Counted from the stretch's first letter, positions 3,615 to 24,895 are shown. The stretch: 64,000 bases of DNA from an uncultured Erysipelotrichaceae bacterium (GCA_902800355.1 CADCEE010000005.1:12465-76464); one strand, 5' to 3'. Translations and numbers: made by a program. The notes: generated by a model not told the origin, from the sequence alone.

Positions 3615-3628
3615 GAGGAATTCATTTT

Positions 3629-4789: not shown

Positions 4790-4948
4790 TTAAGGTCGAA
4801 ACACGGAGGTCAGCTCGCTAACCTTGATAAGTCGCTAGTCGCAATATATATGAAACGAGAGATCAATAAATGTATATGAAGGCGAGCCCTTCCGTTTAAG
4901 AGTAATAGGAAGAATTTTAACGAATAGATAAAAGAGGAGGTGTCTAAA

Positions 4949-6902: not shown

Positions 6903-6913
6903 GAGTGAGAATC

Positions 6914-7456: not shown

Positions 7457-7467
7457 AGGTGAGAGAA

Positions 7468-9762
7468 ATGGCAGAAGCGATTAAAGGTCTTAATATTAAG
7501 CTCGGACTTGATACCACTGAACTAGAGGCTTCTATCAAATCTCTCAATTCCGACTTAAAAGAACAACAACGTGATTTAGCCGCAATTAATAAAAACTTAA
7601 AATACGATTCTTCTAACGTTGATCTATGGAAGCAAAAGCAATCTAAGTTAAACGAAGTTCTTCAAACAACAAAGAAGAAATTAGATGAACAAAAGAAGGC
7701 TCTTGATGTTGCTAGAGAAGGTGTCAAATTAGGCACTGTTTCTGAGCAAGAATTCAACAAGATGCAACGTGCCATCCAATATACGGAGGCAGAAGTAGCA
7801 AAGCTAAATAAGGAACTTAAGGAGACTGAAGGCAAGATTTCAAGTCTTGGTAGCGTTAATGTTGAGAAACTCTCGGCAATTGGATCAGCAATGACCAAAT
7901 ACATTACCGCTCCAGTTACGGCAGCGGTTACAGCTTTATCAGCTTTAGCATTAAAAACCACTGAAACAGTTAATCAAATGTCCGATACCGCTAAACAACT
8001 TGGTGTTGGCCTTGAAGCAATGCAGAAGTGGGAATATGCAGCAAAGCAACTTGGTAGTGAAACCCAATACCTTGATAAGGCATTCCAAAAAGTTAACAAC
8101 TTGTTAGGCCAAATTGCTAACGGAGATGATGTCTCTGAACAATTAGCAAAGATTGGTTTAACAATGGATGATTTAGCAGGTTTGGATGCAGAACAAGCCT
8201 TCGCTAAAATCCGTAGTTCTATTGCTAGCGTAGAAGATGCTGCTACAAGAACTGCTTTAGCAAATCAATTCTTTGGAGATAAATTAGGGACTTTACTTAA
8301 CCCTGTTTTATCTGCTTCCGAAGAAGAACTTCAATCTTGGATGGATGAAGCCGAGAAAGTCGGTATCGTATCTGAAGAAGATGCAGAAATTACTGGTGCT
8401 CTTGGTAATGAAATCTATGCACTTAAACAAGCGTTTCTTTCTTTAAGAACTGAACTTGCAACCGCATTAGCTCCGATTATCACAAAGATAGTGGAGTTCT
8501 TAAGAGAAAAAGTAATACCAAAAATTAAAGAACTTATTCAAAAGTTCAATGAGATGTCCACAAGGATGAAGGGAATCATAGGTGTTGTTACGGCGGTAGC
8601 GGCTGCGATTGGACCAATTCTTACAATCGTTGCTAAAGCAATAACAATGTTTATGAAGTTCAAAGAAGTTCTTGGAACAGTCAGCGAAGCATTCAAAGCT
8701 GTAGGTGGTGCCGCTAAGGCAGGTCCATGGGCTGCACTCATTGCTTTGATAGCGGTGTTACTTCTTCAAAACGAAAACTTCAGAGCCTTACTCAAAAGGG
8801 TTCTTGAAATAGTTCAACAGTTAATCGACAAAATAGTCGAACTTGTTGGAAGAATCATTGAAAAATTGAAACCAATCCTCGACATTTTGATGAATGTTAT
8901 TAATCAAATCATTGATGTATTGGTCGAGGTTATAGATGGCATCCTAGATGTTGTCATGATGGTGTTAGATGAAGTAGTAAAACTACTTGAGAAACTCATT
9001 GATCCAATAACTAGAATCTTAGAAATGCTCACGGCAATCTTGATTCCTGTCACTCAGTTGATAGCAAAGATTCTTCAAGTTGTAGCAAAGATTCTTCAAT
9101 TAGTTATTGGACTTATTGTTCAGATCATCGAAGCAGTAATTGAGTTAATCGATGGGGTTTTGAACATCTTAATCGAAATCATCAACGTAATAGTGGACAT
9201 CTTAGGTGCTGTTATAAATGTTGTAGTGACTTTACTCGACATCTTGGTCGATATTCTAGAACCAATCCTCGAGATCATCTTGGCGATTCTAGAACCACTT
9301 ATCGAATTCATCTCAGGAATTATTGAAATCATCGCTTCCTTGTTCGAAGTGTTGATGCCTCTTATTGAGATTTTCTTAACACCAATTATGGATATCCTTG
9401 ATGTAATCTTTGAGATCATTGAGGCAATTTCTCCTATTTTGGTGATTATTGGAAATGTCATTAAAGCGGTAATTCTTCCTGTTCTCCAACTCTTGATGCA
9501 AATCTTAAAACCAATCCTCGATATCCTAAGTGCCATTATCAATGCGATTAAATGGATTTTGGATCACACAGTTGGTTGGTTAATTAAGTTAATCGAAAAG
9601 ATGTTTGGCACAGGAGACTTTGATGCAGAGAATACGGTCAAAACAACAAGCAATTCATATATGAATACTGACAATTCTCGTACAACAAATAATGTCACTA
9701 TTAACACTAGTGGCGATGTTGATATGGATTCAATTAACGAAGCTTTAGGAGGTGCCTACTAA
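7468..9762 (+). CDS. Tail tape measure protein
   Basis: AGGAGG 7453-7458 then ATG 7468. ~765 aa, N-terminal coiled coil, central hydrophobic segments, long C-terminal Ile/Leu/Asp/Val repeat region; position after G/GT. Confidence 0.75.
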   Translation: MAEAIKGLNIKLGLDTTELEASIKSLNSDLKEQQRDLAAINKNLKYDSSNVDLWKQKQSKLNEVLQTTKKKLDEQKKALDVAREGVKLGTVSEQEFNKMQRAIQYTEAEVAKLNKELKETEGKISSLGSVNVEKLSAIGSAMTKYITAPVTAAVTALSALALKTTETVNQMSDTAKQLGVGLEAMQKWEYAAKQLGSETQYLDKAFQKVNNLLGQIANGDDVSEQLAKIGLTMDDLAGLDAEQAFAKIRSSIASVEDAATRTALANQFFGDKLGTLLNPVLSASEEELQSWMDEAEKVGIVSEEDAEITGALGNEIYALKQAFLSLRTELATALAPIITKIVEFLREKVIPKIKELIQKFNEMSTRMKGIIGVVTAVAAAIGPILTIVAKAITMFMKFKEVLGTVSEAFKAVGGAAKAGPWAALIALIAVLLLQNENFRALLKRVLEIVQQLIDKIVELVGRIIEKLKPILDILMNVINQIIDVLVEVIDGILDVVMMVLDEVVKLLEKLIDPITRILEMLTAILIPVTQLIAKILQVVAKILQLVIGLIVQIIEAVIELIDGVLNILIEIINVIVDILGAVINVVVTLLDILVDILEPILEIILAILEPLIEFISGIIEIIASLFEVLMPLIEIFLTPIMDILDVIFEIIEAISPILVIIGNVIKAVILPVLQLLMQILKPILDILSAIINAIKWILDHTVGWLIKLIEKMFGTGDFDAENTVKTTSNSYMNTDNSRTTNNVTINTSGDVDMDSINEALGGAY
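8800..9560 (+). repeat. Degenerate tandem peptide repeats within the tape measure gene
   Basis: Recurring ~11-residue units of the form ILD/ILE-ILxxVIxxIID/E (e.g. KPILDILMNVINQIIDVLVEVIDGILDVVMMVLDEVV ... EPILEIILAILEPLIEFISGIIEIIASLFEVLMPLIEIF ... KPILDILSAIINAI). Confidence 0.6.
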
Positions 9763-10592
9763 TGAGAAGAAAACTATATTTAGTTAACGAAGTTGGTAGC
9801 ACCTTCTATTTTGACTACACCCACAATTGTGTCATCGAAGAAATGGATGGCTTTGGTTTTGAGTTCGACATTGACTATGAAGAGTTTGATTCAAGGTTTG
9901 TTGAGACAAAACGAAAGATTCCTCAAAGAACCCTTGATTTAACCCTTGATTTCTTTGATGGGTATCATGGTTTTACTCGATGGAGAGAATTCATTACTAA
10001 AAGTAAAGAAGTTCGACTCTTCTATGAAACATCTGTTGGGAAAAAATATTGCTACGTTAATGTTGTCTCTTCAACAAAAGCACAGTTAGAGAGTGGAGTG
10101 CTTAAAAGCAAGGTGAAGATTGATTGTTTATCTCTTTGGCTTGTAAATAAGTCTGCTCATATAGAAGTTACTGATGCTGGTGGTGGAAAGATTTATACGT
10201 ATCAATACCCATATGTATATGCAGTTTCCTTTAATGGAAAAGTCACTGTTAATAATGAATCATCTAGGAATGTACCTTTGGTAATTAGATTAATTGGCAA
10301 TTGCTATAACCCTAGAGTAATCATTCGTCAAAATGGTGTTGATATACAAACATTAAGATTGATAGTTGATGAAAGAGACGAACCAACGATTGTTATTTGC
10401 TCTGAACCAACTAATCAATACATCAAGCGGCTTTTAGATGCAGAAGAACAAGACTATTACGATAAGCAAGACTTTAGTTGTGAAAACTTCTTATTCTTAC
10501 CACCCGGTGAAAGTGAAATATTCTTTGATCCTGGAGTAAGAGAAGAAGCGACCTGTGAAATCTCGTTTAAAGAAGAATATATCGCTCATTAG
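9762..10592 (+). CDS. Distal tail protein (Dit-like) / siphovirus tail component
   Basis: 276 aa; start overlaps the tape measure stop (TAATG); canonical position after TMP. Confidence 0.4.
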   Translation: MRRKLYLVNEVGSTFYFDYTHNCVIEEMDGFGFEFDIDYEEFDSRFVETKRKIPQRTLDLTLDFFDGYHGFTRWREFITKSKEVRLFYETSVGKKYCYVNVVSSTKAQLESGVLKSKVKIDCLSLWLVNKSAHIEVTDAGGGKIYTYQYPYVYAVSFNGKVTVNNESSRNVPLVIRLIGNCYNPRVIIRQNGVDIQTLRLIVDERDEPTIVICSEPTNQYIKRLLDAEEQDYYDKQDFSCENFLFLPPGESEIFFDPGVREEATCEISFKEEYIAH

Positions 10593-10601
10593 GAGGTGTC
10601 T

Positions 10602-11666
10602 ATGCAACTTATCTTTTTAAGTGAACAAGACTTATCAGTAATGGACTACGGTTACGCCACTGATGATTTCGATATTATTCTTGATGCGTTAGTACCTCAA
10701 AAGTCAAAATTCACAGTAAATAAACAAAGTTTAAAAGCGAAAGTTGGTGACTTATTAATTGTTAAAGAAAATGGTTATCCATATGTTGGAATAATCACCT
10801 CTATAAAAACTGATGAAAAGTTACAAACTAAAGTGGAAACAAAAGACTATTTATCTCTTCTTGATGTAGATGTACCTCTTCCAAGAACTTTTAGTGGTAA
10901 CTCAGCTCAATTTATTGTGAATCTGATAAACAACACTTTTAAGTATTCAGGTGACACATACCAAAATGTCAGTTATCTCGAAACATCGGTTGAGGTGGTG
11001 AAGAACTGTAATCTAGCTTATGAAGCAGACACTAAAGAAAACATCCTAGATTTGGTAGAGGAATTCTCTAAAACCTATGGCATTAGACTTGAATACCAAG
11101 TTGTCCTTGCTAATGGAAAGTTTTCCAAAATTAGAATACGAGTTGTTTCTGCTAAAGTTGGTGTCACCATGAAGTCAACTCTTGGTGGTATTACTAATCT
11201 CAACGTAAATGACACAAACGAAATAAGTTTAAACAAAGTTTTTTACATACCAAAAGCTGAGAATACGCAGCATACAAGTCAAGTTATATATTACTTAACA
11301 AACGATGGGCAAGTGGTAACAACAGCACCTGCTCTTAAACGTATTCCAAAAGTGAAGATGAAGTACGAATTCTTTTCTGATAAGGATTATGATTCGCTTC
11401 TTACTAAAGCTACAAAGGCATTAGTGGATTCTTCACTAGAACACACGATCACATTTAATTTCTCATTTATCACCAATCAAATTGATGCTCTTCAAGAACT
11501 AAAAGTTGGTGCAATTGTGAGATTCATCACGGAAAGTAAGACCTACGATACCATCGTTTCTAAGATGGAATTCAAAGGAACTTTCAATGTCGCTAAGGTC
11601 ACACTTGGTGAATATCGCCTGTCTTTGACAGACAAACTCAAATTATTCGATAGGAGGTCTGCTTAA
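10602..11666 (+). CDS. Tail-associated (Tal-like / baseplate) protein without a recognisable lysin domain
   Basis: AGGAGG 10591-10596 then ATG 10602; ~355 aa; position after Dit. Confidence 0.4.
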   Translation: MQLIFLSEQDLSVMDYGYATDDFDIILDALVPQKSKFTVNKQSLKAKVGDLLIVKENGYPYVGIITSIKTDEKLQTKVETKDYLSLLDVDVPLPRTFSGNSAQFIVNLINNTFKYSGDTYQNVSYLETSVEVVKNCNLAYEADTKENILDLVEEFSKTYGIRLEYQVVLANGKFSKIRIRVVSAKVGVTMKSTLGGITNLNVNDTNEISLNKVFYIPKAENTQHTSQVIYYLTNDGQVVTTAPALKRIPKVKMKYEFFSDKDYDSLLTKATKALVDSSLEHTITFNFSFITNQIDALQELKVGAIVRFITESKTYDTIVSKMEFKGTFNVAKVTLGEYRLSLTDKLKLFDRRSA

Positions 11667-12442
11667 TGGCTATTCAAAAAATTACATTCGATGCCGCTTC
11701 GGTATCAAGCAAAATGGATGCCGATATCAATCACTTTTTAACAAGTGGTGTGAATGGCATTTTTTACGGCATTTTAGGTAGATGCCAAGCTTCAGTCAGC
11801 AATAACTATATTTCTTTCCAAAATGGTTACGTACAGGTATACGGAAGAAGAATCTTTGTTGAGAGTGGAACTAAGATATCGGTTTCTTTGGATGGATCAG
11901 CTTATGGCATTGTTGTTATCAAAATTGATCTCGGAAATAACACAATCTCTTTAGAGAAGAAAGAAGCTAGTTCTGCTTATCCAACGCTTATTCAAAATGA
12001 CTTAATGAATGGTGGTCTCATCTATGAGTTTCCGCTTTGTAGATATACCAAAACCTCATCTTCAATCACTTTGGATTCTACATATGATCCACCATATATT
12101 AAAAATGACCAAACAAAGATTAACGAGAAAGCAACTGAAGTCAAAAATGATGCTAGCTCCAAATATGGTTATCTCTATGATGGCTGGTCACACTTGTCTT
12201 ATGGTCACTGTTATACATTTGATAACATCAACTCATTAAACGCCTATAACGGAATTATTAGTGTTTATGTCGGTGGAACAAATGTTATTTTCTGCGGAGC
12301 TTCAGTAGGTGGAAGTGGTGGCATCGTTCATTACCGCTATAACGGTCAAGATTGCACACTTTCATGTCAACTAACTAGCAGCAAACTATATGTCGAAGAT
12401 AGTAGGGGGAATGAACCAAAATATGCAAGAGTTATTAGATAG
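11666..12442 (+). CDS. Putative tail fibre / receptor-binding protein (hypothetical)
   Basis: 258 aa, start overlaps upstream stop (TAATG), Ser/Gly/Tyr-rich beta-type composition, last gene of the tail block. Confidence 0.3.
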   Translation: MAIQKITFDAASVSSKMDADINHFLTSGVNGIFYGILGRCQASVSNNYISFQNGYVQVYGRRIFVESGTKISVSLDGSAYGIVVIKIDLGNNTISLEKKEASSAYPTLIQNDLMNGGLIYEFPLCRYTKTSSSITLDSTYDPPYIKNDQTKINEKATEVKNDASSKYGYLYDGWSHLSYGHCYTFDNINSLNAYNGIISVYVGGTNVIFCGASVGGSGGIVHYRYNGQDCTLSCQLTSSKLYVEDSRGNEPKYARVIR

Positions 12443-13031
12443 ATTATTTTCACCAAACAAGATTTTATTGGTGTATCGCTGCGGTTCTTTAATCTTTGGA
12501 CTAAGCGATGATGAAAGCGATAAAGATTTTACTGTCGTCATTGATGGATTTGATAGTTGCAATGTAGTCAAAACTGATGATTGCGATTTCTTTACCTTTG
12601 GTAGAAGTTATTTTGAGAAGCTTAAAAACTTCGATAAAGGGTGTCTAACATATTTCCTTTGTTGGTTAGACAACACACTTCTCGCCAAAGAAAACATCAT
12701 ATATGTTGATGATTCAATCAAAGATCAACTTGATGAGTTCTTATATATCGATTTCAAAAAACATTTTAAAGATTGGCTTTATCGCTTGATTGCTTATTTT
12801 GGTATCAGGCTTGAAAACTACAAGGATGAAAAGAGTCTTTATCATTTGTATCGAGTCGAATCCCTTATTAGGCATTACAAAGAAACAGGCAAGTTTGAAT
12901 ATTACTTCTCTGAAGAGAACTTCGAACTAGCGAAAGACCTTAAAACTAATATGAACATAGAAAAGCATCTCCCAAGATTAAAGGAGATTTTTTCTTACTT
13001 GTTAAGTCTTTATGAGGAGGAACAAGAATGA
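12390..13031 (+). CDS. Pol-beta superfamily nucleotidyltransferase (KNTase/MNT-like) with helical C-terminal domain
   Basis: NTase signature LVYRCGSLIFGLSDDESDKDFTVV (hG[GS]-x9-13-Dh[DE]h). C-terminal helical part has an RVESLIRH (Rx6H, HEPN-like) element. Alternative start ATG 12411. Confidence 0.5.
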   Translation: MSKIVGGMNQNMQELLDRLFSPNKILLVYRCGSLIFGLSDDESDKDFTVVIDGFDSCNVVKTDDCDFFTFGRSYFEKLKNFDKGCLTYFLCWLDNTLLAKENIIYVDDSIKDQLDEFLYIDFKKHFKDWLYRLIAYFGIRLENYKDEKSLYHLYRVESLIRHYKETGKFEYYFSEENFELAKDLKTNMNIEKHLPRLKEIFSYLLSLYEEEQE

Positions 13032-13297
13032 GTCACATCGTAGAAATCATCATAACAACAGCGTCTATCATTACTGCATTGGGAGTAATCTTTGGGATTC
13101 TATTTGCCTTATTCAAATGGCTTATGAAAAGAGATAAAAACGATGCAGAAATCAAAGAGATAAAGGAAGAACAATCTATTCTCACCAAAGGTGTTCTTGC
13201 CTGTCTTAAAGGTTTAAAGGAACAAGGATGTGATGGTCCAGTTACGGTAGCAATTGCCGAAATTGAAGATCACATAAACAAACAAGCTCATAAATAG
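13028..13297 (+). CDS. Small single-pass membrane protein (holin-like) with charged C-terminus
   Basis: N-terminal TM (IIITTASIITALGVIFGILFALFKWL) then KRDKND-rich tail; overlaps previous gene by 4 nt. Confidence 0.4.
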   Translation: MSHIVEIIITTASIITALGVIFGILFALFKWLMKRDKNDAEIKEIKEEQSILTKGVLACLKGLKEQGCDGPVTVAIAEIEDHINKQAHK

Positions 13298-13308
13298 GAG
13301 GAGCAAAT

Positions 13309-13689
13309 ATGAACCAAATCTTACTTAATATTTTAGCTGCTGTAGTGACAGCAATTGTCCTTCCTCTCATTTCCTATATTGGAGTGAGATTTTCAACTTA
13401 CCTTAATAACAAGATTAAAGATGAAACCGCTAAGAGACTATTGAACGAAGCGACACAAATCGTTCTTAATGCCACAAGAGTGGTTTTTCAGACCTATGTT
13501 GAGGCTTTGAAAGCTGAAGGCAAATTCGATAAAGATGCTCAATTAATTGCCCTTAACAAGGCTAAATCGATTGTCCTAGCAGAACTTAAAGAAGACACTA
13601 GGTCATTCATTGAAAAGAACTATGGAGACTTAACTTCATGGATCACAAATCAAATTGAAGCATCAATCAATATTCTCAAAAACGCATAA
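13309..13689 (+). CDS. Small N-terminally membrane-anchored protein (holin-like / hypothetical)
   Basis: AGGAGGAG RBS; N-terminal TM (ILLNILAAVVTAIVLPLISYIGV) followed by a soluble helical domain; followed by terminator 13709-13736. Confidence 0.4.
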   Translation: MNQILLNILAAVVTAIVLPLISYIGVRFSTYLNNKIKDETAKRLLNEATQIVLNATRVVFQTYVEALKAEGKFDKDAQLIALNKAKSIVLAELKEDTRSFIEKNYGDLTSWITNQIEASINILKNA

Positions 13690-13708
13690 AACGATTCAAA
13701 ACGTACTC

Positions 13709-13750: not shown

Positions 13751-13885
13751 ATGAATCAAGAACTAAAGTTAGAACTAGCCAAAGCATTTATTGATTATGT
13801 ATGGCTTAAAGGAAAAATCTCTGATGAAGAAAGGTCAAAAAGTGAGGCTATCATCAAAGAAAAATTAAATCCAAAAAAAGTGTAA
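13751..13885 (+). CDS. Small hypothetical protein (44 aa)
   Basis: AGGAG then ATG 13751 (MNQELKLELAKAFIDYVWLKGKISDEERSKSEAIIKEKLNPKKV). Confidence 0.3.
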   Translation: MNQELKLELAKAFIDYVWLKGKISDEERSKSEAIIKEKLNPKKV

Positions 13886-14015
13886 AAGGTCGCTGACGAA
13901 ATAAATTGGTCGCGGCAGTATAAATATGAAGAGGGCGGGCGAAAGCCCATATATTTTTTGCCCTATGGAATCCCATCGGTTGCCGAGGGGAACAAAACAA
14001 AGAAAGGAGAAAACT

Positions 14016-15449
14016 ATGAAGAAAAGAGTAGTGGCTTATGCGAGAGTTTCTTCCAAATCTAGATCACAAGCACATTCCTTGGAATTTCAAAAATCATACT
14101 GGAATGAAAAATTAGCAACTGATCCTGATTATGAATTTCTCGGTTTATATGCCGACCACGGAATAAGTGGTAAATCCATTAAGAACAGGACTCAGTTCCT
14201 ACGAATGATTCATAAAGCAATGGATGGAGGAATAGATATTATCTTTACAAAATCAGTGCAAAGGTTTGCTCGTAATACGGAAGAGTTGTTATCAATTGTC
14301 CATGAATTAAGAGATATCGGTGTTGCTGTTGTATTTGAAAAAGAAAATATTAATACCTTACAAATAACTAGTGACTTGTTTCTTACGGTTGCCGCCGCTG
14401 TGGCAGAAGAAGATTTATCTAGATACAGGGCTAATGTTGTTTGGAGCATTGAAGAATCATATAAAAGAGGAAAACCAATTTCTTTTGGCGGAAGAGTTTT
14501 TGGATATCACGTTGGAAAAAACTGTGCTTTGACCATCAATGAGGAAGAAGCTGAAGTGGTTAGAAAAATCTTTGAACTATACATTAGTGGATATAGTCTC
14601 AATGACCTTAAGAATTACTTAGATTCCAAAGGAATTAAGTCACCTATGGGAAGTGTATGGTCAAATTCGACATTAAGTGGAATTCTTCGAAATGAAAAAT
14701 ATATAGGCGATGTGATGCTTCATAAAGAAATTCAGGTAAATGGTGTTAGGAAAGTGATTAGAAATAAAGAAGTGAATCAGTATTATATCGAAAATCATCA
14801 CCCTGCAATTATTACAAAAGAAGTTTTCAAAAAAGCACAGGAAGTAGCTGAATCAAGAAGAAATCCATTATTGGTTGGATTAGTAAACAAAGAATATCCT
14901 TTTACAGCGTTAATTGAATGTTCCTGTTGTCATAAGAAGTTCCATCATAAATTCAATCATTCGAGTTCTAATTATTCTGCTCCTTGGTATCGTTGCTCAT
15001 CTACTAGAGATAAATGTACTTCAACAGCGATTAGAGAAGACATTTTAGAAGAACTCTTTATTGAGGCATTTAATGAGTTTGTTAGAAATAGATATCAAGG
15101 TGTTGAAGAACAAGATTATCAATCCCAAATAGATGCTAAAGAAAAAGAAGAACAGGAATTAACTAAACTATACGCTAATGGTTGGATATCTAAAGAAGAT
15201 TATGATTCCGAACTCAACCAAATCTTAGAAACAAAAAACAAGCTGTTGAAAGAACAAAGTTCTTTAAAATCGAGATTAATAACTGATAGAGATTATAAAG
15301 AACTTAAAGTGTTTGACCCAACAAAGGTAACAAAGTTCCTTAAAAAATGCATTGTCAAAAGAGATACCATCGAATTTCATTTCTACAACGGTGTAATCAT
15401 TTCAAAAAAGGTAATAAATAGGAGGATTTATCATTATGCCACAAACTAA
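14016..15449 (+). CDS. Large serine recombinase (resolvase/invertase catalytic domain + recombinase domain + zinc ribbon), first of a tandem pair
   Basis: AAAGGAGA RBS then ATG 14016. N-terminus VVAYARVSSKSRSQ (catalytic Ser motif), C-rich region (CSCCHKKFHH...CSSTRDKC), C-terminal coiled coil. Track start 13926 is an upstream in-frame extension lacking an RBS. Confidence 0.8.
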   Translation: MKKRVVAYARVSSKSRSQAHSLEFQKSYWNEKLATDPDYEFLGLYADHGISGKSIKNRTQFLRMIHKAMDGGIDIIFTKSVQRFARNTEELLSIVHELRDIGVAVVFEKENINTLQITSDLFLTVAAAVAEEDLSRYRANVVWSIEESYKRGKPISFGGRVFGYHVGKNCALTINEEEAEVVRKIFELYISGYSLNDLKNYLDSKGIKSPMGSVWSNSTLSGILRNEKYIGDVMLHKEIQVNGVRKVIRNKEVNQYYIENHHPAIITKEVFKKAQEVAESRRNPLLVGLVNKEYPFTALIECSCCHKKFHHKFNHSSSNYSAPWYRCSSTRDKCTSTAIREDILEELFIEAFNEFVRNRYQGVEEQDYQSQIDAKEKEEQELTKLYANGWISKEDYDSELNQILETKNKLLKEQSSLKSRLITDRDYKELKVFDPTKVTKFLKKCIVKRDTIEFHFYNGVIISKKVINRRIYHYATN

Positions 15450-17040
15450 TGTCAGGATTATCAAAGCAAATCCGTTTAATTTTAAAAACGAGGCCACTGA
15501 ATCACGCTTATTAAAAGTAGCGGCATATGCACGTGTCTCCACTGATAGCGAAGAACAAGAAGACTCATTCGATAGGCAAGTAAGTTACTACAGCAATTAT
15601 ATCCAATCGAATCCTGAATGGGAGTTTGTGAAAGTCTATAGTGATCCAGGTATTTCAGGAACAAAGGCAGAATCTAGGCCTGGCTTTATGGAAATGATGG
15701 AAGACTGTAGAAAAGGAAAGATTAATAGAATATTAGTTAAATCAATAGCTCGTTTTGCTAGAAATACTGTTGATGCTCTCAAGTATATTAGAGAACTAAA
15801 AGAACTTGGTATCAGCGTTTATTTTGAAGCACACAATCTTGATACTGGCACAAGTGGTGGCGAAGTCCTATTAACAATTCTTGCTGCAACTGCTGAGGAA
15901 GAATCTAGAACAATTTCTAAGAATATCAAATGGACATATCAAAAGAAATTCGAAAGAGGGGAGTTTGTTTTTAATTACTCTCAATTCCTCGGGTTGAAGA
16001 AAACTGATGAAGGATTTGTAATTGTTGAGGAAGAAGCTGAAACTGTACGAAGAATTTATAGAGAATTCTTAAGTGGTGGATCATATCAACAAATTGCAAA
16101 AGGATTAAACGAAGACAATGTAAAAACACCTAGTGGAAGGGGAAGGTTTTCTGCCGCTGTTATTAAAAGCATCTTAACAAATGAAAAGTACTATGGTGCT
16201 TGTATAATGGGGAAAACATTTAAACCTGATGTTTTATCTAAAAAGAGATACAAAAATACAGGTCAAGTTGATTCCTACTATGTAGAAAACGCACTTCCTC
16301 AAATTGTTTCAAAAGAAACTTGGGATAGGGTTCAATTTGAAATTAAAGAAAGAGATGAAAATAGGGGTGTATCAAATAAAGTTTATGGCAAATTCTCTAG
16401 TGCATATCCTTTTTCCAAAATTATTAGATGTGGTTGTTGTGGTTCCTTATTTGTTCGTAATAAGAATATGAGGGGTCATGGTAAAAATATACCTTGTTGG
16501 ACTTGTTCGAGTCATTTTTATCACAGTGATTCATGTCCTCAAAAAGGAATCTCTGAAGAATCAATAAAGAGAGCATTTGTAACTGTTATTAACGAAATAG
16601 CTGAAAATGTTGTAGAACTTAAAAAGGTTGTTGCTGATTCAATTAGAGAATCTATGATGAATACCCCAAAATTTACACCTGAACAACTCGAAGAAGAAAT
16701 CATTGATTTACAGGAAGATATGTTGGAACTCCATAAAAGAAAAACAAAAGGTTTAGTATCTCCAAAAGATTATGCAGAACAGGGACAAGCTCTCGCAGAT
16801 AAAATAGACTTAAAGAAGAGATTGCTTGATGAAATTAAATCCAAGATGATTCTTACCGAACTTACGGCAAAACGAATGACCGAGATTGAAGAGGTTCTTT
16901 CTACTCTTAAGCCTACCGATGACTTTAACGAAATTATATTTAGAAAAATGGTGGAGTCTATCACCGTAAACGATAGAACAAAGTTAACATTCAAATTCAA
17001 GGTTGGCATCGAAAAAACAATAGAAACCGAAATAAAATGA
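15436..17040 (+). CDS. Large serine recombinase, second of a tandem pair (paralogue of the upstream gene)
   Basis: GGAGGA 15421-15426 then ATG 15436, overlapping the upstream gene by 14 nt. AAYARVSTDSEEQ catalytic motif, Cys cluster (CGCCGS...CWTCSSH...C), long C-terminal coiled coil. Confidence 0.8.
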   Translation: MPQTNVRIIKANPFNFKNEATESRLLKVAAYARVSTDSEEQEDSFDRQVSYYSNYIQSNPEWEFVKVYSDPGISGTKAESRPGFMEMMEDCRKGKINRILVKSIARFARNTVDALKYIRELKELGISVYFEAHNLDTGTSGGEVLLTILAATAEEESRTISKNIKWTYQKKFERGEFVFNYSQFLGLKKTDEGFVIVEEEAETVRRIYREFLSGGSYQQIAKGLNEDNVKTPSGRGRFSAAVIKSILTNEKYYGACIMGKTFKPDVLSKKRYKNTGQVDSYYVENALPQIVSKETWDRVQFEIKERDENRGVSNKVYGKFSSAYPFSKIIRCGCCGSLFVRNKNMRGHGKNIPCWTCSSHFYHSDSCPQKGISEESIKRAFVTVINEIAENVVELKKVVADSIRESMMNTPKFTPEQLEEEIIDLQEDMLELHKRKTKGLVSPKDYAEQGQALADKIDLKKRLLDEIKSKMILTELTAKRMTEIEEVLSTLKPTDDFNEIIFRKMVESITVNDRTKLTFKFKVGIEKTIETEIK

Positions 17041-17046
17041 TTAAAG

Positions 17047-17082
17047 CCTAGTGGATGAATAATCTACTAGGTCTTTTTTTTT
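17047..17082 (+). terminator. Rho-independent terminator after the recombinase pair
   Basis: CCTAGTGGA-loop-TCTACTAGG hairpin followed by a T9 run. Confidence 0.6.
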
Positions 17083-17162
17083 ATGCTTTTGATCAAAGTG
17101 GTCTTTATGAATATATAAAATTGTTGTAAAATTGATATAAATTTAATCACATAGGGAGACTT

Positions 17163-17348
17163 ATGGACTTTTCGCCTCAGGAAATTAAAAACTTAAGATT
17201 AAAGCTTATGATGACCCAAACCGAATTTGCTAAATTAGTTGGGGTTTCTTTTCTTTCAATCAACAGGTACGAAAACGGAAAATCTAAACCGACTTTCAAG
17301 GTGCAAAGAAAATTAACTGAACTGAAGGCTAAAATGGAGGAAGACTAA
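17163..17348 (+). CDS. XRE-family helix-turn-helix transcriptional regulator (61 aa)
   Basis: LMMTQTEFAKLVGVSFLSINRYENGKSKP is a classic XRE HTH. Stop 17346-17348 is 1 nt before the next ATG, and the RBS for the next gene (GGAGGAAG) lies inside its 3' end. Confidence 0.75.
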   Translation: MDFSPQEIKNLRLKLMMTQTEFAKLVGVSFLSINRYENGKSKPTFKVQRKLTELKAKMEED

Positions 17349-17349
17349 C

Positions 17350-19581
17350 ATGGCAGAGTGCAATCCTGAGTTATGGAAACTTAAAAATATTAAAGAGGCA
17401 TTGGAAGGCGAAATTACCATCAATGGTTCTAAAAGGAAAATAGTCATTCCTTTATTCCAAAGGGGAAAGAGATGGACAAAAGAAACAAAGGATATGTTTA
17501 TCGACTCTCTAACGAAAGGTTATCCGATTGGTTCCTTGCTTTTCTACAAGACTCAAGTCGACAATGTCGATGTTTTTACATTGATTGACGGATTGCAAAG
17601 AGGATCCTCTATTAAAGAATATTTATCGAATCCAACTAAGTTCTTTGACATATCAAAAATTAGCAAAGAAGCAAGGGAAAAACTCTATGGTTTAGTAGTG
17701 GTAGGTGGAAATGCCGAAGTGCAAAAAGCGAAAGCAGATGAGTTGTTAACCACCTATATTAGAAGTCTTAAAACCTATGATGATTATGATCTATTGAACT
17801 TATACACCCTTTTCCTGAACGAGTTCCCTGTCTTAAATGGAAAAACAAGCGAGTTCGGATTAGCAGTCAGGGATGAACTCAATCGTTTGAAAAATGACTA
17901 CAATCACTTAAGTGAAATCCAAATACCTGCGGTTGTTTATACAGGCGATGAATCGACGTTACCTGAGATTTTTACCAGGATCAACAAAGAGGGAAAACCT
18001 CTATCCGAATATGAGATATTTGCCGCTTCTTGGCCTAGTGCTGAATTCAAGATTGAAAACGAGCAAATAGTTGAATATGTGCTTAAGAAATACGATATGT
18101 TGAATGACACTGAATTTACTCTCAGTGGTTACAATCGTGATGAAAAGAGAATCAACAAGAGCGTGAACGCATTTGAATATGCATTCGGCTTTTCTAAATA
18201 CATTACAAACAAGTATTCATCCTTAGCTTTCTATACCGATATTCCTGATGATGTGGCGAATCAGGTCGGCTTCCAACTTATAAATGCCTGCTTCAATTCA
18301 TCCCACAGTCAAATCAAAGATGTCCATAAGATAATCACGAGATTCTCCTCTAACATTTCGAAACTCGAAGAGGCTATTGAAGACTCAATAAGGTTCGTGG
18401 ATAAGTGCATCGAGCCAATTCTCAAGTTCAAAGGGAACAACAGGGAGAAGAAAAAAGGCTTCCACTCTCAATTCCAAATCATGTCCCTCATCTCGTTTGT
18501 TTTCAGGAAGAAGTACAACATCCAAGATGACACGTTGAAAATCAACGAAGACTGGAGAGCCAGTAAACAAAAACTGGAAGAGAACATTTGGAAATACTAT
18601 GTCTTTGACATCATCAATAAATATTGGGGTGAAGGCGGCACAGGAAAAATCCATTCCGCTAACTCCGAAAATAGATATTTGACCGATTTGACTAGCGAAC
18701 AATTTGGTGCCGCTTACGATTCTTATTCTGCGGCTTTGTTAAGCAGGAGAGAAATCAAGAATGTTTCGTACCCAAGCGACATCGACTATGTGATTCTCAA
18801 CACGATTTACTTAAACCTTTTCACCGCAATGGATCAATTGTCTCTAAAGAGGTTTGATGTAGAGCACATCGCAACAAAGGACCAAATGAAGAAGTTCATC
18901 AAGGTCACCAATGGCGAAGGTTTACCTATCTCGCACATTGCCAACCTATGCTACTTGCCTGAGTTCGAAAACAGGAGCAAAGGATCGAAAAACTTCTACC
19001 AAGATACCAATTACCTATCCAAAGCTGGAACAACCATTGAAACCATCGAAGAAAAATATAGTTTCACTTCAAAACCAGACCTCGAGTTTATGGATTTGGA
19101 ATATCAGGATGGCGATTTTGACATCCTTAGACTTTATTATGTCGATGAGTTCCTCGCTAATAGAAACAAGATTGTAAGAAAGAAGTTCTTAGAATCCCTA
19201 GGTTTTGAAAACGCAGAGGAGGTGGCGGCACCTGTTCAAGAAATCCAATCCGAAACGGTGTTCAATGAACAATACTATAGGACAACCAAGATTGGTCGTT
19301 TGGTGAGGGAAACATTCAGCTATTTATCTAGGAATGGATATTTCAGCGATGTTGATGTCAAAAACCTAAAAAACAAGGATTATTCCTTAAAGGAATTGGG
19401 CGCAGCATATCCAGTTTTATTAGAGGTGGACCAAGACCCTCACGATTCCCATGGCACGATGAGATATTACAAAGATTCCATTGAGATTAATGGGCACAAA
19501 TACTATTTGACAAGCGAGTGGTTTGAACACGATAGAAAGCTTGTTGTGCCTTGGATCAAAAAGAAATTAGGGCAGATTTAA
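17350..19581 (+). CDS. Single-chain GmrSD-family (DUF262 + DUF1524 His-Me finger) type IV restriction-like nuclease
   Basis: N-terminal DUF262/ParB-like signature FQRGKRWTKETKDMFIDSLTKGYPIGSLLFY...LIDGLQRGSSI (DGQQR variant). C-terminal DUF1524 signature DVEHIATKD...ISHIANLCYLPEFENRSKGSKNF. Confidence 0.75.
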   Translation: MAECNPELWKLKNIKEALEGEITINGSKRKIVIPLFQRGKRWTKETKDMFIDSLTKGYPIGSLLFYKTQVDNVDVFTLIDGLQRGSSIKEYLSNPTKFFDISKISKEAREKLYGLVVVGGNAEVQKAKADELLTTYIRSLKTYDDYDLLNLYTLFLNEFPVLNGKTSEFGLAVRDELNRLKNDYNHLSEIQIPAVVYTGDESTLPEIFTRINKEGKPLSEYEIFAASWPSAEFKIENEQIVEYVLKKYDMLNDTEFTLSGYNRDEKRINKSVNAFEYAFGFSKYITNKYSSLAFYTDIPDDVANQVGFQLINACFNSSHSQIKDVHKIITRFSSNISKLEEAIEDSIRFVDKCIEPILKFKGNNREKKKGFHSQFQIMSLISFVFRKKYNIQDDTLKINEDWRASKQKLEENIWKYYVFDIINKYWGEGGTGKIHSANSENRYLTDLTSEQFGAAYDSYSAALLSRREIKNVSYPSDIDYVILNTIYLNLFTAMDQLSLKRFDVEHIATKDQMKKFIKVTNGEGLPISHIANLCYLPEFENRSKGSKNFYQDTNYLSKAGTTIETIEEKYSFTSKPDLEFMDLEYQDGDFDILRLYYVDEFLANRNKIVRKKFLESLGFENAEEVAAPVQEIQSETVFNEQYYRTTKIGRLVRETFSYLSRNGYFSDVDVKNLKNKDYSLKELGAAYPVLLEVDQDPHDSHGTMRYYKDSIEINGHKYYLTSEWFEHDRKLVVPWIKKKLGQI

Positions 19582-19582
19582 T

Positions 19583-20176
19583 ATGAGTTGGGATACTACT
19601 GAAAAACGAATCAAATGCCCTTGTGGTAGGGGCGAAATAGTTCAGGTGAACAAAGATAATGATTGGGGTCAATACATCGAAGGAACTCCTGTTATCGAAT
19701 GCCCTGAATGTGCTAAGAAATATAAGCTTGTATCAAATACACATTCGTCATATAAGCCTGGTCACGGCAGTTGGACTAACTATTACTTAGTCCCAAAGGG
19801 ACTCAAACCCGATAAAAAATACAAGAACTCCTTTGAATACGTGAATGAGTATGAATTGGCCAAAAAGGATTTTGCTGAATACCTAATAGTGGATTATCCA
19901 AAGAGCGTTTTGGAAGAAGTTTACACAGAACTTTTGAATGCAACCTCGGTTTCGGCTTTGAGAAGTGCTGCGAGAAGAATTGCAAAGGATAAGAAGAGAT
20001 ACACGGGATCCTGCAAGATAAAGGAACTAACCCCATTAGTCAAAAAAGCCATCGATGGATTTGATTCCTATAATGGCAATTGGCAACAAAGGGATGATGA
20101 AGAACAGGAAAATATCAAGGCAGAGGAAGAGTATCTAGCCAAGGTTCGCAAGGAAGGAATTTTGCTTGATTTATAG
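19583..20176 (+). CDS. Zinc-ribbon protein of unknown function, translationally coupled to the GmrSD-like gene
   Basis: ATG 2 nt after the upstream stop (TAATATG). N-terminal CPCG-x17-CPEC zinc ribbon; acidic C-terminus; no recognisable catalytic motif. Confidence 0.5.
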   Translation: MSWDTTEKRIKCPCGRGEIVQVNKDNDWGQYIEGTPVIECPECAKKYKLVSNTHSSYKPGHGSWTNYYLVPKGLKPDKKYKNSFEYVNEYELAKKDFAEYLIVDYPKSVLEEVYTELLNATSVSALRSAARRIAKDKKRYTGSCKIKELTPLVKKAIDGFDSYNGNWQQRDDEEQENIKAEEEYLAKVRKEGILLDL

Positions 20177-20195
20177 CAAAAAATCCGTTCGATTC

Positions 20196-20320
20196 CTCCC
20201 ATCCCCTTTAAAATGTATCAATGTTGTAGTGCAACCCCTTTCAAAAAGGACTAAATGTATCAATATTGTTGTACTAACACAACTTGATTAAATAGGATTG
20301 ATACAAAGTCAGTCCTTTTT
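20196..20320 (+). repeat. Structured intergenic repeat element, copy A (nested stems; ends in a terminator-like stem plus T-run)
   Basis: AAAAAGGACT...AGTCCTTTTTT outer stem, TGTATCAAT/ATTGATACA inner stem, GTTGT-ACTAAC-ACAAC hairpin. The motifs ATGTATCAA and TTAAATAGGATTGAT...GTCAGTCCTTTT recur at 21613-21680. Confidence 0.5.
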
Positions 20321-20352
20321 TCTTGCTTAAAAAAGTCTAATATATTATAGAA

Positions 20353-20374
20353 TAAGACTATGTCTTATGATAAG
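20353..20374 (+). promoter_or_regulatory. Interlocking palindromes (operator-like) immediately upstream of the 125-aa ORF
   Basis: TAAGAC-TAT-GTCTTA (6-3-6) overlapping CTTAT-G-ATAAG (5-1-5), 9 nt before ATG 20383. Confidence 0.35.
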
Positions 20375-20382
20375 ATATAAGC

Positions 20383-20760
20383 ATGACAAAAAAGAAAAGA
20401 CTAACTCATGATCAAAAGATAATTAAAGCTTTAGAAAAAATCAAAACTCCTATTGTTGATGAAATTAGGAATTTGTCTATCTTTTTTAAAGCGAGGTCAC
20501 GAAGCAACGAGACCGGAATGGAACATGTAGCTAAGAATTATCATGGTTTGGATCCAAGCGATATTGAATTATTAATAGATTGTATTAAAAATCCTATTGA
20601 ACATATTAAAGATAGAAGATATCCAAAAACATACTGTTATTACCACGCTAGAAAGCATGACAAAAATCATTACATCAAAGTTGTTGTTAAGGTTGAAAAC
20701 GATTTTAAAACAGGGTATATATCTTCGATATTCATTACATCAAAAATTAAAAATAAGTAG
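20383..20760 (+). CDS. Small basic hypothetical protein (125 aa)
   Basis: Lys-rich (pI clearly basic), no motif I can assign; sits between the repeat element and the vat-like gene. Confidence 0.4.
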   Translation: MTKKKRLTHDQKIIKALEKIKTPIVDEIRNLSIFFKARSRSNETGMEHVAKNYHGLDPSDIELLIDCIKNPIEHIKDRRYPKTYCYYHARKHDKNHYIKVVVKVENDFKTGYISSIFITSKIKNK

Positions 20761-20890
20761 TGGAATTAACCGATTACTATGATAAAATAACTGTGTCAAA
20801 GGTGGAAAGTCGCTGTGCGACCACGACGCATTTCTTCGGAAATGGATTGACTAGCGATTCAGGATGCAGCGCCCTGATTGACAAATAATC

Positions 20891-20915
20891 ACATCTCATT
20901 GAGATGTTTTCTTTT
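20891..20915 (+). terminator. Intrinsic terminator/attenuator hairpin 24 nt upstream of the vat-like start codon
   Basis: ACATCTC-ATT-GAGATGT perfect stem followed by TTTTCTTTT; lies at the 3' end of an unusually GC-rich ~130 nt leader (20775-20880). Confidence 0.55.
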
Positions 20916-20938
20916 ATGTTTTTTGCTATCATATTTAT

Positions 20939-21583
20939 ATGGAAAAAGAGATGAAACCAATTTATCCGAACTCACAATTTAAGTCTTTTTGTTATATCAA
21001 AAGCGTAGTTACTAGACCAAATATTATTGTGGGCGATTATTCCTATTATGATGATAGTGAGGACGGCCCGGAATCTTTTGAAAAACACGTAACCCATCAT
21101 TATGACTTTATGGGCGATAAGCTTATTATTGGTAAGTTTGTTGCAATAGCAAGAGGCGTGGAGTTTGTGATGAATGGTGCTAATCACATGTTAGATTGTT
21201 TAACAACTTATCCTTTTGAAATCATTGATGAATTCAAAGGTCTATCTAGACCATTCGGAGATAGAGGAAACCGTGGAGATACAGTTGTAGGTAACGATGT
21301 CTGGATTGGTCAAAACGCCACAATATTACCAGGAGTTCATATTGGTGATGGCGCGATTATAGGCGCTAATGCAGTAGTAGCAAAAGATGTTCCTCCGTAT
21401 GCAGTTGTTGTGGGCAATCCTGCTATTATTAAGAAATATAGATTTGATAAAGAAACAATCAATCTTCTTTTAGAACTCAAATGGTGGGACAAAGATATTG
21501 AAGAAATCAAAAAACTAATCCCATTACTTACTGGTGACTTAGCAAATAATAAAAAAGAACTTAAAAAAATATTGAAGAAATAG
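20939..21583 (+). CDS. vat: Vat-family xenobiotic (streptogramin A-type) O-acetyltransferase, hexapeptide-repeat
   Basis: Strong family-level similarity to Vat/SatA-type enzymes: [84 protein letters not shown]. Confidence 0.8.
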
Positions 21584-24804: not shown

Positions 24805-24895
24805 GGAGATTTACCCAAGTGGTTGAAGGGGTCGGTCTTGAAAACCGATAGGAGGTGCAAGCCTCGCTAGGGTTCAAATCCCTAAATCTCCGCCA
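24805..24895 (+). tRNA. tRNA-Ser (anticodon TGA)
   Basis: GGAGATT...AATCTCC acceptor, anticodon loop CTTGAAA, long variable arm, T-loop GGTTCAAATCC, CCA encoded. Confidence 0.8.

Follow-up and report, generated by a model that had tools for sequence, protein, structure and literature searches.

Defence hotspots at prophage ends are moron or cargo slots beside the integrase and the att site. The GmrSD family of nucleases is defined by a DUF262 domain with a DGQQR motif, a DUF1524 domain with an EHxxP motif and a helical linker between them (PMC11322646, PMC12065111), and the domain logic of DUF262-containing defence proteins has been described (PMC12065111). RptR represents a type of small repressor found in defence islands (PMC12255303). 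The described enzymes nearest to the nuclease of the locus presented here are BrxU from E. fergusonii pEFER (PDB 7P9K) and the GmrSD-family type IV restriction enzymes Eco94GmrSD, SspE and E. faecalis EF_B0059. The locus lies in a 64-kb stretch of DNA from an uncultured Erysipelotrichaceae bacterium, which was analysed as a whole (the window). We consider it likely that its three genes are a mosaic operon of defence cargo, located at the end of a siphovirus-like prophage that adjoins a candidate att site, and not a dedicated three-part system.

Cassette anatomy and prophage setting

Three ORFs lie at 17163-20176 on the plus strand, each 1 nt from the next, and are bracketed by two terminator-like hairpins; coordinates and sizes agree exactly with those of an initial annotation. 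We refer to the ORFs as genes 1 to 3. The features of the locus are as follows.

13926-15449, plus strand: large serine recombinase 1, 507 aa (Pfam Resolvase 1.3e-25, Recombinase 8e-27, Zn_ribbon_recom 3e-9)
15436-17040, plus strand: large serine recombinase 2, 534 aa (Pfam Resolvase 1.8e-36, Recombinase, Zn_ribbon_recom)
17046-17081, plus strand: terminator-like hairpin and T-run after the recombinase gene (11-bp stem, T9)
17085-17162, plus strand: conserved leader (promoter/operator region), approximately 97% nt identity to contig L126
17163-17348, plus strand: gene 1, XRE-family HTH protein, 61 aa (stop TAA 17346-17348)
17350-19581, plus strand: gene 2, BrxU/GmrSD-like nuclease, 743 aa (stop TAA 19579-19581)
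19583-20176, plus strand: gene 3, uncharacterised Cys4 zinc-ribbon and helical-bundle protein, 197 aa
20211-20272, plus strand: two 20-nt direct repeats, AAATGTATCAATGTTGTAGT and AAATGTATCAATATTGTTGT, recurring with a period of 42 nt, within the conserved sequence 3' of gene 3
20256-20305, no strand assigned: candidate attR, 50 bp, with inverted half-sites TGTATCAAT and ATTGATACA and the phage/host junction at approximately 20281-20284
20294-20325, plus strand: terminator-like hairpin and T-run closing the transcription unit (9-bp stem, T-rich tail)

The spacers are a single C before the gene 2 ATG at 17350 and a single T before the gene 3 ATG at 19583, and all three start codons are backed by N-terminal conservation among homologues (MxxxxxEIKxLRLK in the HTH protein, MAxCxPExW in gene 2 and MSW(D/E) in gene 3). 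The upstream hairpin contains an inverted repeat (17047-17056 and 17062-17071), and a hairpin with a T-run can be read at the equivalent position in L028 and L126. No Rfam family matches anywhere across 16500-21500. Independent metagenome contigs (L007-L010 and L039) carry the same cassette with 98% nt identity, so that an assembly artefact can be dismissed. The Shine-Dalgarno sequence before gene 3 is weak in the window, compared to AGGAGG in L014. Together with the 1-nt junctions, this implies that expression of gene 3 in the window is probably dependent on gene 2 translation, a coupling that would fit a functional link between the two genes.

The setting is one of defence and mobile elements, as the initial annotation had recognised: tape measure, tail and holin genes lie upstream of the cassette, followed by the two serine recombinase genes. 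Recombinase 1 has 75% aa identity to the first recombinase of the phage contig L126, and recombinase 2 is 99%, 75.5% and 35% identical to its counterparts in L039, L126 and L028, each of which has a cargo gene led by an HTH on its 3' side. On the other side, L007, L014 and L126 share the sequence flanking gene 3 at its 3' end, with 83% nt identity to L126 as against 59% for gene 3 itself. The half-site TGTATCAAT occurs three times in all in the 64-kb window (20214, 20256 and, on the minus strand, 20297). Homology of the window to L007 stops at 20281 and that to L014 at 20284; past this junction, just the TTGATACAA half-site is kept in the window, L007 and L126. We regard 20256-20305 as a candidate attR of the prophage, which puts the cassette on the phage side of it and hence within the prophage. 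Of the genomic context first proposed, the position downstream of the recombinase pair stands, but the supposed resistance cassette, a Vat-like acetyltransferase gene scoring under its NCBIfam cut-off, is on the host side of the candidate attR. When viral contigs were scanned for exact patterns of the leader and of the att repeat, the L126 contig alone was returned. A 9-mer shared by the leader and the att arm, ATTGTTGTA, was considered as a common operator and rejected: there are two copies in the window, a number reached in 23% of shuffles.

The putative nuclease gene and its relatives

The gene 2 product consists of a ParB/DUF262 NTPase domain (residues ~24-226, with the motif IDGLQRG), a helical middle domain, a putative His-Me finger (FDVEHIATK...NLCYLPE..NRSKG, residues ~502-545) and a variable C-terminal tail (residues ~625-743). 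Pfam PF03235 (GmrSD_N/DUF262) matches residues 24-226 at 3e-25, and all 35 of the 35 family members match as well. Both motifs quoted in the initial annotation are present and conserved: among 35 homologues, D80, G81, L82, Q83 and R84 of DGLQRG are invariant, as are D503, E505, H506, K510, N532, N541, R542 and K544 of DVEHIATKD...NLCYLPEFENRSKGSK. With this domain order and BrxU as best structural match, the protein is indeed single-chain GmrSD/BrxU-like. The DUF1524 assignment, however, may hold at the level of motif and fold only. Pfam DUF1524 (PF07510) gives no match on residues 401-743 at E<=10, nor on any of the 35 family members at E<=1, and a profile of the C-terminal half run against PDB sequences does not retrieve BrxU, SspE or DndI at E<=10. 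The nuclease motif aligns weakly with that of BrxU by hhalign (E 0.0019, probability 14%); for the BrxU N-terminus the values are E 0.007 by phmmer, 6e-4 by profile and 2.7e-6 by hhalign. The nuclease is a fresh member of the already known BrxU/GmrSD type, and its clade comprises hundreds of clusters in gut and rumen Firmicutes whose nuclease domain is missed by current DUF1524 models.

By analogy with GmrSD, BrxU and SspE, the enzyme would most likely bind modified incoming DNA (e.g., hydroxymethylated, glucosylated or methylated), with the ParB/DUF262 NTPase as sensor and the helical middle domain as DNA-binding part, and would most likely cut it with the His-Me finger nuclease in an NTP-dependent manner, shielding the lysogen from superinfecting phages.

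The relatives of gene 2 were compared by neighbourhood, seen as 4-10 kb on either side of each homologue, most contigs being short. The 60% identical relatives (L011-L013) have neither an adjacent HTH gene nor gene 3 in the loci examined and sit among methylase, HNH, Fic and helicase genes; those with 49% identity come after two C5 methylases. Relatives at 60%, 49% and 50% identity alike lack an upstream HTH and a zinc-ribbon neighbour, and the slot 3' of gene 2 relatives is filled variously by HEPN_Apea, PD-(D/E)XK, EVE-HNH, EcoO109I, DUF6119 or methylase genes. In a clade of 778-aa proteins (43% identical), an HTH gene and the DUF262 gene again follow a serine recombinase pair, with a different HTH located 3-17 nt 5' of the nuclease and with unrelated third genes. 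The 314-aa third gene of this clade was compared as a possible distant relative of gene 3 and is not related. The cargo in this clade is DUF262 with HEPN_Apea, with PD-(D/E)XK, or with other genes of no assigned type followed by type I R-M. When the gene 2 and gene 3 families were searched by tblastn against GenBank phages and PLSDB plasmids, only short N-terminal matches were obtained, to DUF262 in Cetobacterium for gene 2 and to the zinc-ribbon knuckle in Ruminococcus, Sporolactobacillus, Planococcus and Paenibacillus for gene 3. As judged from these gene neighbourhoods, nucleases of the gene 2 type work as one polypeptide chain that needs no partner gene.

The initial annotation had suggested an undescribed variant of a type IV restriction or anti-phage module, with the HTH as a possible controller and gene 3 as a possible specificity, sensing or antitoxin subunit. 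In the strict form of this model, the HTH protein, the DUF262-HNH nuclease and the zinc-ribbon protein would be obligate parts of one three-component type IV restriction system. Several features favour this: terminators enclose the three genes as a single unit with 1-nt spacers, the arrangement is kept in at least five independent contigs, and the weak gene 3 ribosome-binding site in the window makes translational coupling to gene 2 probable. However, every contig with this arrangement is an at least 98% identical copy of one cassette, and a gene 3 homologue is found near none of approximately 90 loci with diverged gene 2 relatives (32-60% identical; 4-5 kb searched on either side). The annotation had itself named, beforehand, a lack of synteny between gene 3 homologues and GmrSD-like genes as grounds for abandoning its model, and this is essentially the outcome: gene 3 is beside gene 2 solely in copies of this cassette that are at least 99% identical. 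With, in addition, neither partner adjacent in the examined 60% relatives, and with the properties of gene 3 described below, we regard an obligate three-component system as improbable.

The zinc-ribbon gene, the HTH gene and a probable exchangeable cargo

Gene 3 is, as initially annotated, an uncharacterised Cys4 zinc-ribbon protein. Within 59 family members C12, C40 and C43 are invariant and C14 nearly so, and there is no match in Pfam, PADLOC, NCBIfam, PDB or BFVD. The family is unnamed and comprises 302 clusters at 50% identity, with a length of approximately 190 aa; scans of viral contigs with wider gene 3 alignments found nothing further. Homologues elsewhere, 43-96% identical, are located beside AbiH (one copy follows it), a HEPN-like 141-aa gene or R-M genes, or immediately behind the HTH gene. 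One context has a helicase and the HEPN-like 141-aa gene, then gene 3; a copy at 90% has the order HEPN-like gene, HTH, gene 3 with an ATGA overlap; and a free-standing copy with 96% aa identity has its own AGGAGG and lies downstream of an R-M island. Outside the copies of the window cassette, none of the gene 3 contexts contains a DUF262 gene. Gene 3 is under purifying selection where it has no gene 2 neighbour, and therefore would not be a nuclease subunit. DNA homology to the free-standing copy starts 3 nt before the gene 3 ATG, and this starting point marks a recombination joint. These three observations weigh further against the three-component model. In 4 of approximately 9 contexts gene 3 is near nuclease-type genes and this HTH family, and from such neighbourhoods a looser functional tie to nuclease cargo may exist.

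The position of gene 3 also allows a reading with no defence link, namely that the two serine recombinases use its product as an integration or excision accessory, either a recombination directionality factor or an att-site binder. The directionality factors known from serine integrases are small proteins of diverse sequence. In the window, L007 and L126, no other gene separates gene 3 from the candidate attR, and the repeat-bearing att-proximal flank is conserved alongside; the L014 gene 3 keeps this flank and follows a small ORF homologous to that preceding the window recombinases. Yet no serine recombinase is present in the visible flanks of the L001, L003, L005, L119-L122 and L124 homologues, no att-like motif was found in the visible flanks of the homologues scanned (L001-L006), and the gene 3 family is far broader than this phage group, so that such a role is very improbable.

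The assignment of gene 1 to the XRE-type HTH proteins is borne out by Pfam HTH_3 (1.7e-12). MqsA_antitoxin also matches (1.6e-7), in its HTH part alone (profile positions 70-119), as does TIGR03830 (positions 65-119) with a score under its cut-off; there is a weak match to the PADLOC Control_protein (1.9e-4), and the best PDB matches are PezA, the 434 repressor and the MqsA HTH. Within the leader, a candidate -35 (TTGATC, 17089-17094) and -10 (TATATA, 17112-17117) are followed by ATTGTTGTAAAATTGATATAAATTTAATC; these were read by eye and are absent from the consensus-scan list. A repeat search of the leader (17085-17162) found no inverted repeat or C-box, the terminator aside. Leader and HTH codons 1-53 share approximately 97% nt identity with L126, while the flanking recombinase genes share merely 66-67%, and in L007 the leader differs from that of the window by one base. 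The 61-aa HTH protein is probably a controller or repressor of the cargo operon.

It is not, however, dedicated to the nuclease. In L126, a 93% identical HTH with the near-identical leader heads a type II R-M pair, a C5 methylase and a Bpu10I-like restriction enzyme, which occupies the nuclease position; the full order is recombinases (75% aa), leader and HTH, methylase, Bpu10I-like enzyme, gene 3 (46% aa) and, last, the 3' flank seen in the window. Elsewhere, the HTH orthologue of L120/L121 overlaps gene 3 directly (ATGA), and in L124 a member of the HTH family precedes hsdM and an HTH of this family lies divergently beside gene 3.

The same loci raise the possibility that HTH and gene 3 are a true pair, an undescribed frame of regulator plus sensor or neutraliser, akin to a toxin-antitoxin system, in which nuclease effectors are interchangeable, being embedded in the frame or attached to it, and gene 3 would modulate or complement them. 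What lies between HTH and gene 3 differs from the window to L126, and the effectors vary: DUF262-HNH here, type II R-M in L126, and in L003 and L119-L121 a HEPN-like protein. Direct contact between the two genes, by the ATGA overlap in L120/L121 and divergently in L124, points the same way, as do the two contexts in which the HEPN-like 141-aa gene precedes a gene 3 that is 50% or 90% identical to that of the window. Moreover, the HTH resembles the MqsA antitoxin type, and the zinc-ribbon domain usual in MqsA might here reside on gene 3 instead. If such a frame existed, proteins of the 197-aa family would be no bystanders but would serve nuclease-based defence cargo in general as an accessory. 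We consider a true pair unlikely, if less so than the three-component system.

Because the comparative loci for gene 2, gene 3 and L126 oppose a dedicated system, we interpret the cassette as a swappable defence-cargo slot. In this mosaic operon, placed between the tandem large serine recombinase genes and the candidate attR, the small XRE HTH and its strongly conserved leader would form a portable controller, probably a C-protein-like autorepressor, with an exchangeable cargo position 3' of the HTH that is taken here by the single-chain BrxU/GmrSD-like enzyme. The zinc-ribbon gene would be a separate module, fused to the 3' end of the nuclease gene with the joint precisely at the zinc-ribbon start codon. 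Its family appears mainly in defence and mobile-element neighbourhoods, and our best guess is a protein that acts on its own, either as an accessory binding nucleic acid or as part of the defence island. The 1-nt spacers would make the cassette a single transcription and translation unit here, in an arrangement that seems recent and local. A neat three-gene system can thus be a recent patchwork, which calls for caution where defence systems are discovered from tight spacing in a single genome. The gene 3 family, recurring in defence and mobile-element neighbourhoods with no detectable known fold, is a reasonable candidate for experimental screening.

Comparison with described systems

Sequence likeness of gene 2 to BrxU is confined to approximately 60 N-terminal residues. 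Relative to the GmrSD family, the DGQQR motif reads DGLQR (first Q to L), and EHxxP is EHIAT in the gene 2 sub-clade, whereas the 778-aa clade has EHIAP. Gene 2 further differs from BrxU/GmrSD in its extra tail of approximately 120 aa, missing or different in sister clades, and in the translationally coupled HTH gene that precedes it. Among other DUF262 systems, the PADLOC PD-T4-2_A profile matches the gene 2 N-terminus, and the NsnA profile of Menshen (NsnABC) matches residues 31-414, i.e., the ParB-DUF262 and helical 'ParBDB' domains. Unlike NsnA in Menshen, however, gene 2 carries its own nuclease motif, as in GmrSD, and it has no NsnB ABC-ATPase and no NsnC/PIN-like effector beside it; the zinc-ribbon ORF, the att site and host genes are found instead.

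The HTH protein is comparable to the C proteins of R-M systems and to RptR-type repressors (PMC12255303), which are likewise small XRE-type HTH proteins, first in the operon and directly before restriction genes. The likeness to R-M C proteins includes an orthologue, in L126, that shares the leader and stands at the head of a bona fide type II R-M system. Yet no sequence relation of the window HTH to solved C proteins or to RptR was detected, no C-box-like inverted repeat was found in the leader, and the enzyme behind the HTH is type IV-like and independent of a methylase, so that a delay in its expression has no obvious use. MqsA-type antitoxins have an N-terminal CxxCG...CxxCG zinc domain fused to the HTH and an MqsR toxin next to them; the 61-aa window HTH has neither, with zero cysteines and no MqsR-like gene adjoining.

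The locus as a whole resembles the defence hotspots at prophage ends, with cargo likewise located between integrase genes and att, and with conserved flanks around content that varies among related phages (DUF262 nuclease or type II R-M). What sets the window slot apart is its borders: to the left, a portable HTH leader, and to the right, a zinc-ribbon gene that has diverged between the phages while remaining homologous. The locus documents a prophage-end cargo slot in which the portable leader would drive a type IV-like enzyme in one phage and type II R-M genes in another.

Anatomy of the cassette and its three products

The three open reading frames of the initial annotation are present exactly as described, including the 1-nt spacing: just one base lies between a stop codon and the ATG after it, and all three start codons are backed by the N-terminal conservation of homologues. 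The cassette is found again, at 98% nucleotide identity, on the independent metagenome contigs L007-L010 and L039. Given the terminator-like hairpins on either side, it forms one plausible transcription unit.

Features of the prophage end and the cassette (window coordinates)
7459-9762: tape measure
11666-12442: tail protein
13309-13689: holin
~13754-13885: small ORF just before the recombinases
17046-17081: terminator-like hairpin and T-run, 3' of the upstream recombinase gene
17163-17348: gene 1, XRE HTH (61 aa)
17350-19581: gene 2, DUF262 nuclease (743 aa)
19583-20176: gene 3, zinc-ribbon protein (197 aa)
20294-20325: second terminator-like hairpin and T-run
24805-24895: tRNA-Ser (anticodon TGA), ~4.5 kb right of the prophage end and away from the junction

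Gene 1 encodes a generic XRE HTH protein. It matches Pfam HTH_3 (1.7e-12), the MqsA model in the HTH part only and, weakly, the PADLOC 'Control_protein' profile, and its nearest PDB relatives are PezA, the 434 repressor and the MqsA HTH. A search of the leader, the conserved stretch before gene 1 (17085-17162), found no palindromic operator.

Gene 2 had been described as a single-chain GmrSD-like nuclease with DUF262 and DUF1524 domains. The DUF262 part held up (Pfam GmrSD_N, 3e-25, residues 24-226, motif IDGLQRG), but the Pfam DUF1524 model found nothing in the C-terminal half at E<=10 and matched 0 of 35 family members at E<=1. The PADLOC NsnA profile matches residues 31-414, a region equivalent to ParB-DUF262 together with the helical 'ParBDB' middle domain common to NsnA, DndB, GmrSD and SspE (PMC12065111). 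The protein has a clear ParB/DUF262 domain, and its overall fold is GmrSD-like. An invariant motif, FDVEH-I-A-T/P-K ... NLCYL ... NRSK, can be aligned by eye with FHVDHIYPK ... NLQLLEG..NNQKRQK of BrxU, with weak hhalign support (E 0.0019, probability 14%). The family signatures are DGQQR and EHxxP (PMC11322646), and the 778-aa sister clade has the canonical form of the latter, EHIAP. On this evidence, we class gene 2 with the BrxU/GmrSD-like enzymes, as a divergent one with a nuclease domain that Pfam in its current form does not pick up. Its C-terminal tail of ~120 extra residues, missing or replaced in sister clades, may be an additional DNA- or modification-reading domain. The tail (residues 625-743, ~19222-19578) consists of helices and then a small beta sheet; it is missing from 613-623-aa relatives and differs in the 778-aa clade. 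DUF4357 gives a weak match in one family member.

Gene 3 is, as originally annotated, an uncharacterised zinc-ribbon protein without an assignable domain: Pfam, PADLOC, NCBIfam, PHROGs and PDB return no match, and the confident AF2 model (pLDDT 90.4) combines a Cys4 zinc-ribbon region rich in beta structure (residues 4-71) with a helical bundle (89-191). An exhaustive profile search (E<=1e-3) yielded a family of 302 clusters at 50% identity, with mostly full-length members (170-210 aa), none of which carries a name. C12, C40 and C43 are invariant, and C14, G17, D27, W28 (DDWNR motif), L110 and Y160 nearly so. The zinc-ribbon N-terminal part (~residues 1-75) also exists as separate ~80-aa proteins, for example at 8001-8243 of contig L015 and in family representatives P0172, P0180, P0184 and others; one such gene lies on a viral contig between DUF1492 regulator and ParB-N6 methylase genes.

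The pairing of genes 2 and 3

Approximately 100 loci with gene 2 relatives were gathered and searched by tblastn for gene 3. It adjoins gene 2 only in the cassette copies that are at least 99% identical (L007-L010, L039). Within 4-5 kb on either side of 32-60% identical relatives, gene 3 was found in none of ~90 loci, so that no synteny of its homologues with diverged GmrSD-like genes was seen. The 60% identical relatives examined stand alone: no HTH lies upstream, and their neighbours are methylases, an HNH gene, Fic and helicases. The slot directly 3' of gene 2 relatives is variable in content, holding HEPN_Apea, PD-(D/E)XK, EVE-HNH, EcoO109I REase, DUF6119, C5 methylase, type IIG-like, Vsr, ATPase and unknown genes. 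Gene 3 homologues, for their part, occur in various surroundings.

Contexts of gene 3 homologues (identity, neighbours)
54%: after AbiH
50% (L003): after a helicase and a HEPN-like 141-aa gene
43%: after an acetyltransferase
53%: overlaps a 119-aa ORF; GIY-YIG protein next
62% (L124): divergent from an HTH-hsdM operon
96% (L014): free-standing behind an R-M island, Erysipelotrichaceae MAG
90% (L120/L121): HEPN-like gene, HTH orthologue, then gene 3, with ATGA overlap and no DUF262 gene

The HEPN-like ~141-aa protein has an RNHWAH (Rx4H) motif and a weak HEPN_Swt1 match, and is encoded immediately before gene 3 homologues. Present in L003 (3338-3763), L119 (1956-2384), L120 and L121, it is the most repeatable gene 3 neighbour seen, cassette copies aside; gene 3 of L003 and L119 is 50% and 90% identical to the window copy.

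Compared with copies lacking a DUF262 neighbour, gene 3 has a dN/dS of 0.12-0.13, so the gene is functional by itself. The window and the free-standing copy share DNA homology from 19580, 3 nt before the ATG, to 20284. Gene 3 plus its 3' flank thus make up a discrete module whose junction with the end of gene 2 is exact. The Shine-Dalgarno sequence before gene 3 is weak in the window, while the free-standing 96% copy has its own AGGAGG, which suggests that translation of gene 3 here depends on gene 2; such dependence is a local effect of the junction. Among the near-identical copies (window, L007, L039), divergence is two to three times higher in gene 3 than in gene 2. The dS values for the window versus L007 and L039 (~0.08-0.09 for gene 3 and 0.04 for gene 2, from small counts) hint at a separate recombination history for gene 3 even inside the cassette lineage. 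We read the close packing of the three genes as a mosaic of recent origin.

Exchanged cargo at the prophage end

Both serine recombinases recur in the related viral contig L126 (IMGVR_UViG_3300012007_000537), at 75% amino acid identity and only 66-67% at the nucleotide level. After them come a terminator and then a leader and HTH ~97% nucleotide identical to the window as far as HTH codon 53. Where the window has the DUF262 gene, L126 encodes a C5 cytosine methylase (Pfam, 2e-71) and a Bpu10I-like restriction endonuclease (4e-24), after which come a gene 3 homologue (46% amino acid identity) and the same 3' flank (83% nucleotide identity). With the R-M pair between the same borders, HTH/leader and gene 3/flank bracket a position with exchanged cargo, and the HTH is not, as had been proposed, dedicated to the DUF262 enzyme. 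The initial annotation's interpretation is supported in part, but not its dedicated three-component module: gene 3 is absent within 4-5 kb of gene 2 relatives at ~90 diverged loci, and the HTH heads an R-M pair in L126. We consider an obligate system of HTH, nuclease and gene 3 very unlikely. The HTH and gene 3 might instead be a frame for interchangeable nucleases, a reading supported by the contexts in L120/L121, L126 and L124 and by the repeated HEPN-like neighbour of gene 3. It is weakened by the occurrence of gene 3 without an HTH immediately upstream and by unequal divergence (HTH 93%, gene 3 46% amino acid identity), and we consider it unlikely too.

An analogous layout is seen in the 778-aa clade of gene 2 relatives (43% identical, human gut): lysin, two serine recombinases, terminator and promoter, a different ~70-aa HTH, the DUF262 nuclease and an unrelated third gene. 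The HTH of this clade is conserved (MLKNNIEVDVKVKCIE...) and ends 3-17 nt before the nuclease gene. Type I R-M follows the third gene in L028-L032, and other members differ downstream. Across these loci (L028-L032, L057, L070, L079 and others), the third gene is HEPN_Apea, PD-(D/E)XK or an unknown. Prophages thus repeatedly place an HTH and a DUF262 enzyme behind a pair of serine recombinases, an arrangement of which the third gene is no part.

Phage late genes occupy window positions 1-13,700 and are followed by the two recombinases; the prophage left end lies beyond the window. At the right, TGTATCAAT is present in three copies in the 64-kb window (20214, 20256 and, inverted, 20297). A 50-bp unit spans 20256-20305, its half-sites inverted (TGTATCAAT/ATTGATACA), and two 20-nt direct repeats lie within 20211-20305. 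Homology stops mid-unit, at 20281 for L007 and 20284 for L014, past which only a TTGATACAA half-site is common to the window, L007 and L126. Judged by this arrangement, 20256-20305 is probably the attR of a serine-recombinase prophage, a position that would make the entire cassette att-proximal cargo within the prophage. That gene 3, which precedes this site, is an integrase accessory strikes us as extremely improbable.

The 9-mer ATTGTTGTA has two copies in the window, at 17120-17128 in the HTH leader and 20265-20273 in the att-proximal repeat; at least two copies arise in 23% of shuffles, so the count is not statistically significant. ATTGATA/TATCAAT is likewise common to both places. The placement of ATTGTTGTA is suggestive of a candidate shared binding site. 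In L014 (7617-8700), a ATCAATATTGTTGTACT motif lies on both sides of the 96% identical gene 3, and the small ORF before it is homologous to the window ORF preceding the recombinases; this locus resembles a remnant or a small version of the right end of the prophage that lacks recombinases, HTH and cargo.

For a 125-aa ORF just past the candidate attR (20383-20760), searches of Pfam, PADLOC, NCBIfam and PHROGs gave nothing. The resistance cassette reported downstream is represented by a gene at 20939-21583, on the host side of the candidate attR. Its product is a hexapeptide-repeat acetyltransferase closest to Vat streptogramin A acetyltransferases, but its NCBIfam match (7e-77, 257 bits) is under the curated cut-off (300 bits), and the appropriate label is Vat-like rather than confirmed resistance gene.

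Proposed function and known counterparts

Two features retain their interest: the zinc-ribbon family, which has no name, and the portable cargo slot led by the HTH. In a lysogen, the leader promoter would drive all three cassette genes, and the HTH is probably a repressor of that promoter, its own, in the manner of the autorepressing R-M controller proteins and RptR (PMC12255303). By analogy with GmrSD, BrxU and SspE (PMC11322646, PMC12065111), the nuclease would recognise modified incoming DNA through its ParB-like NTPase and helical domains and cut it with its His-Me finger, so that superinfecting phages would be excluded.
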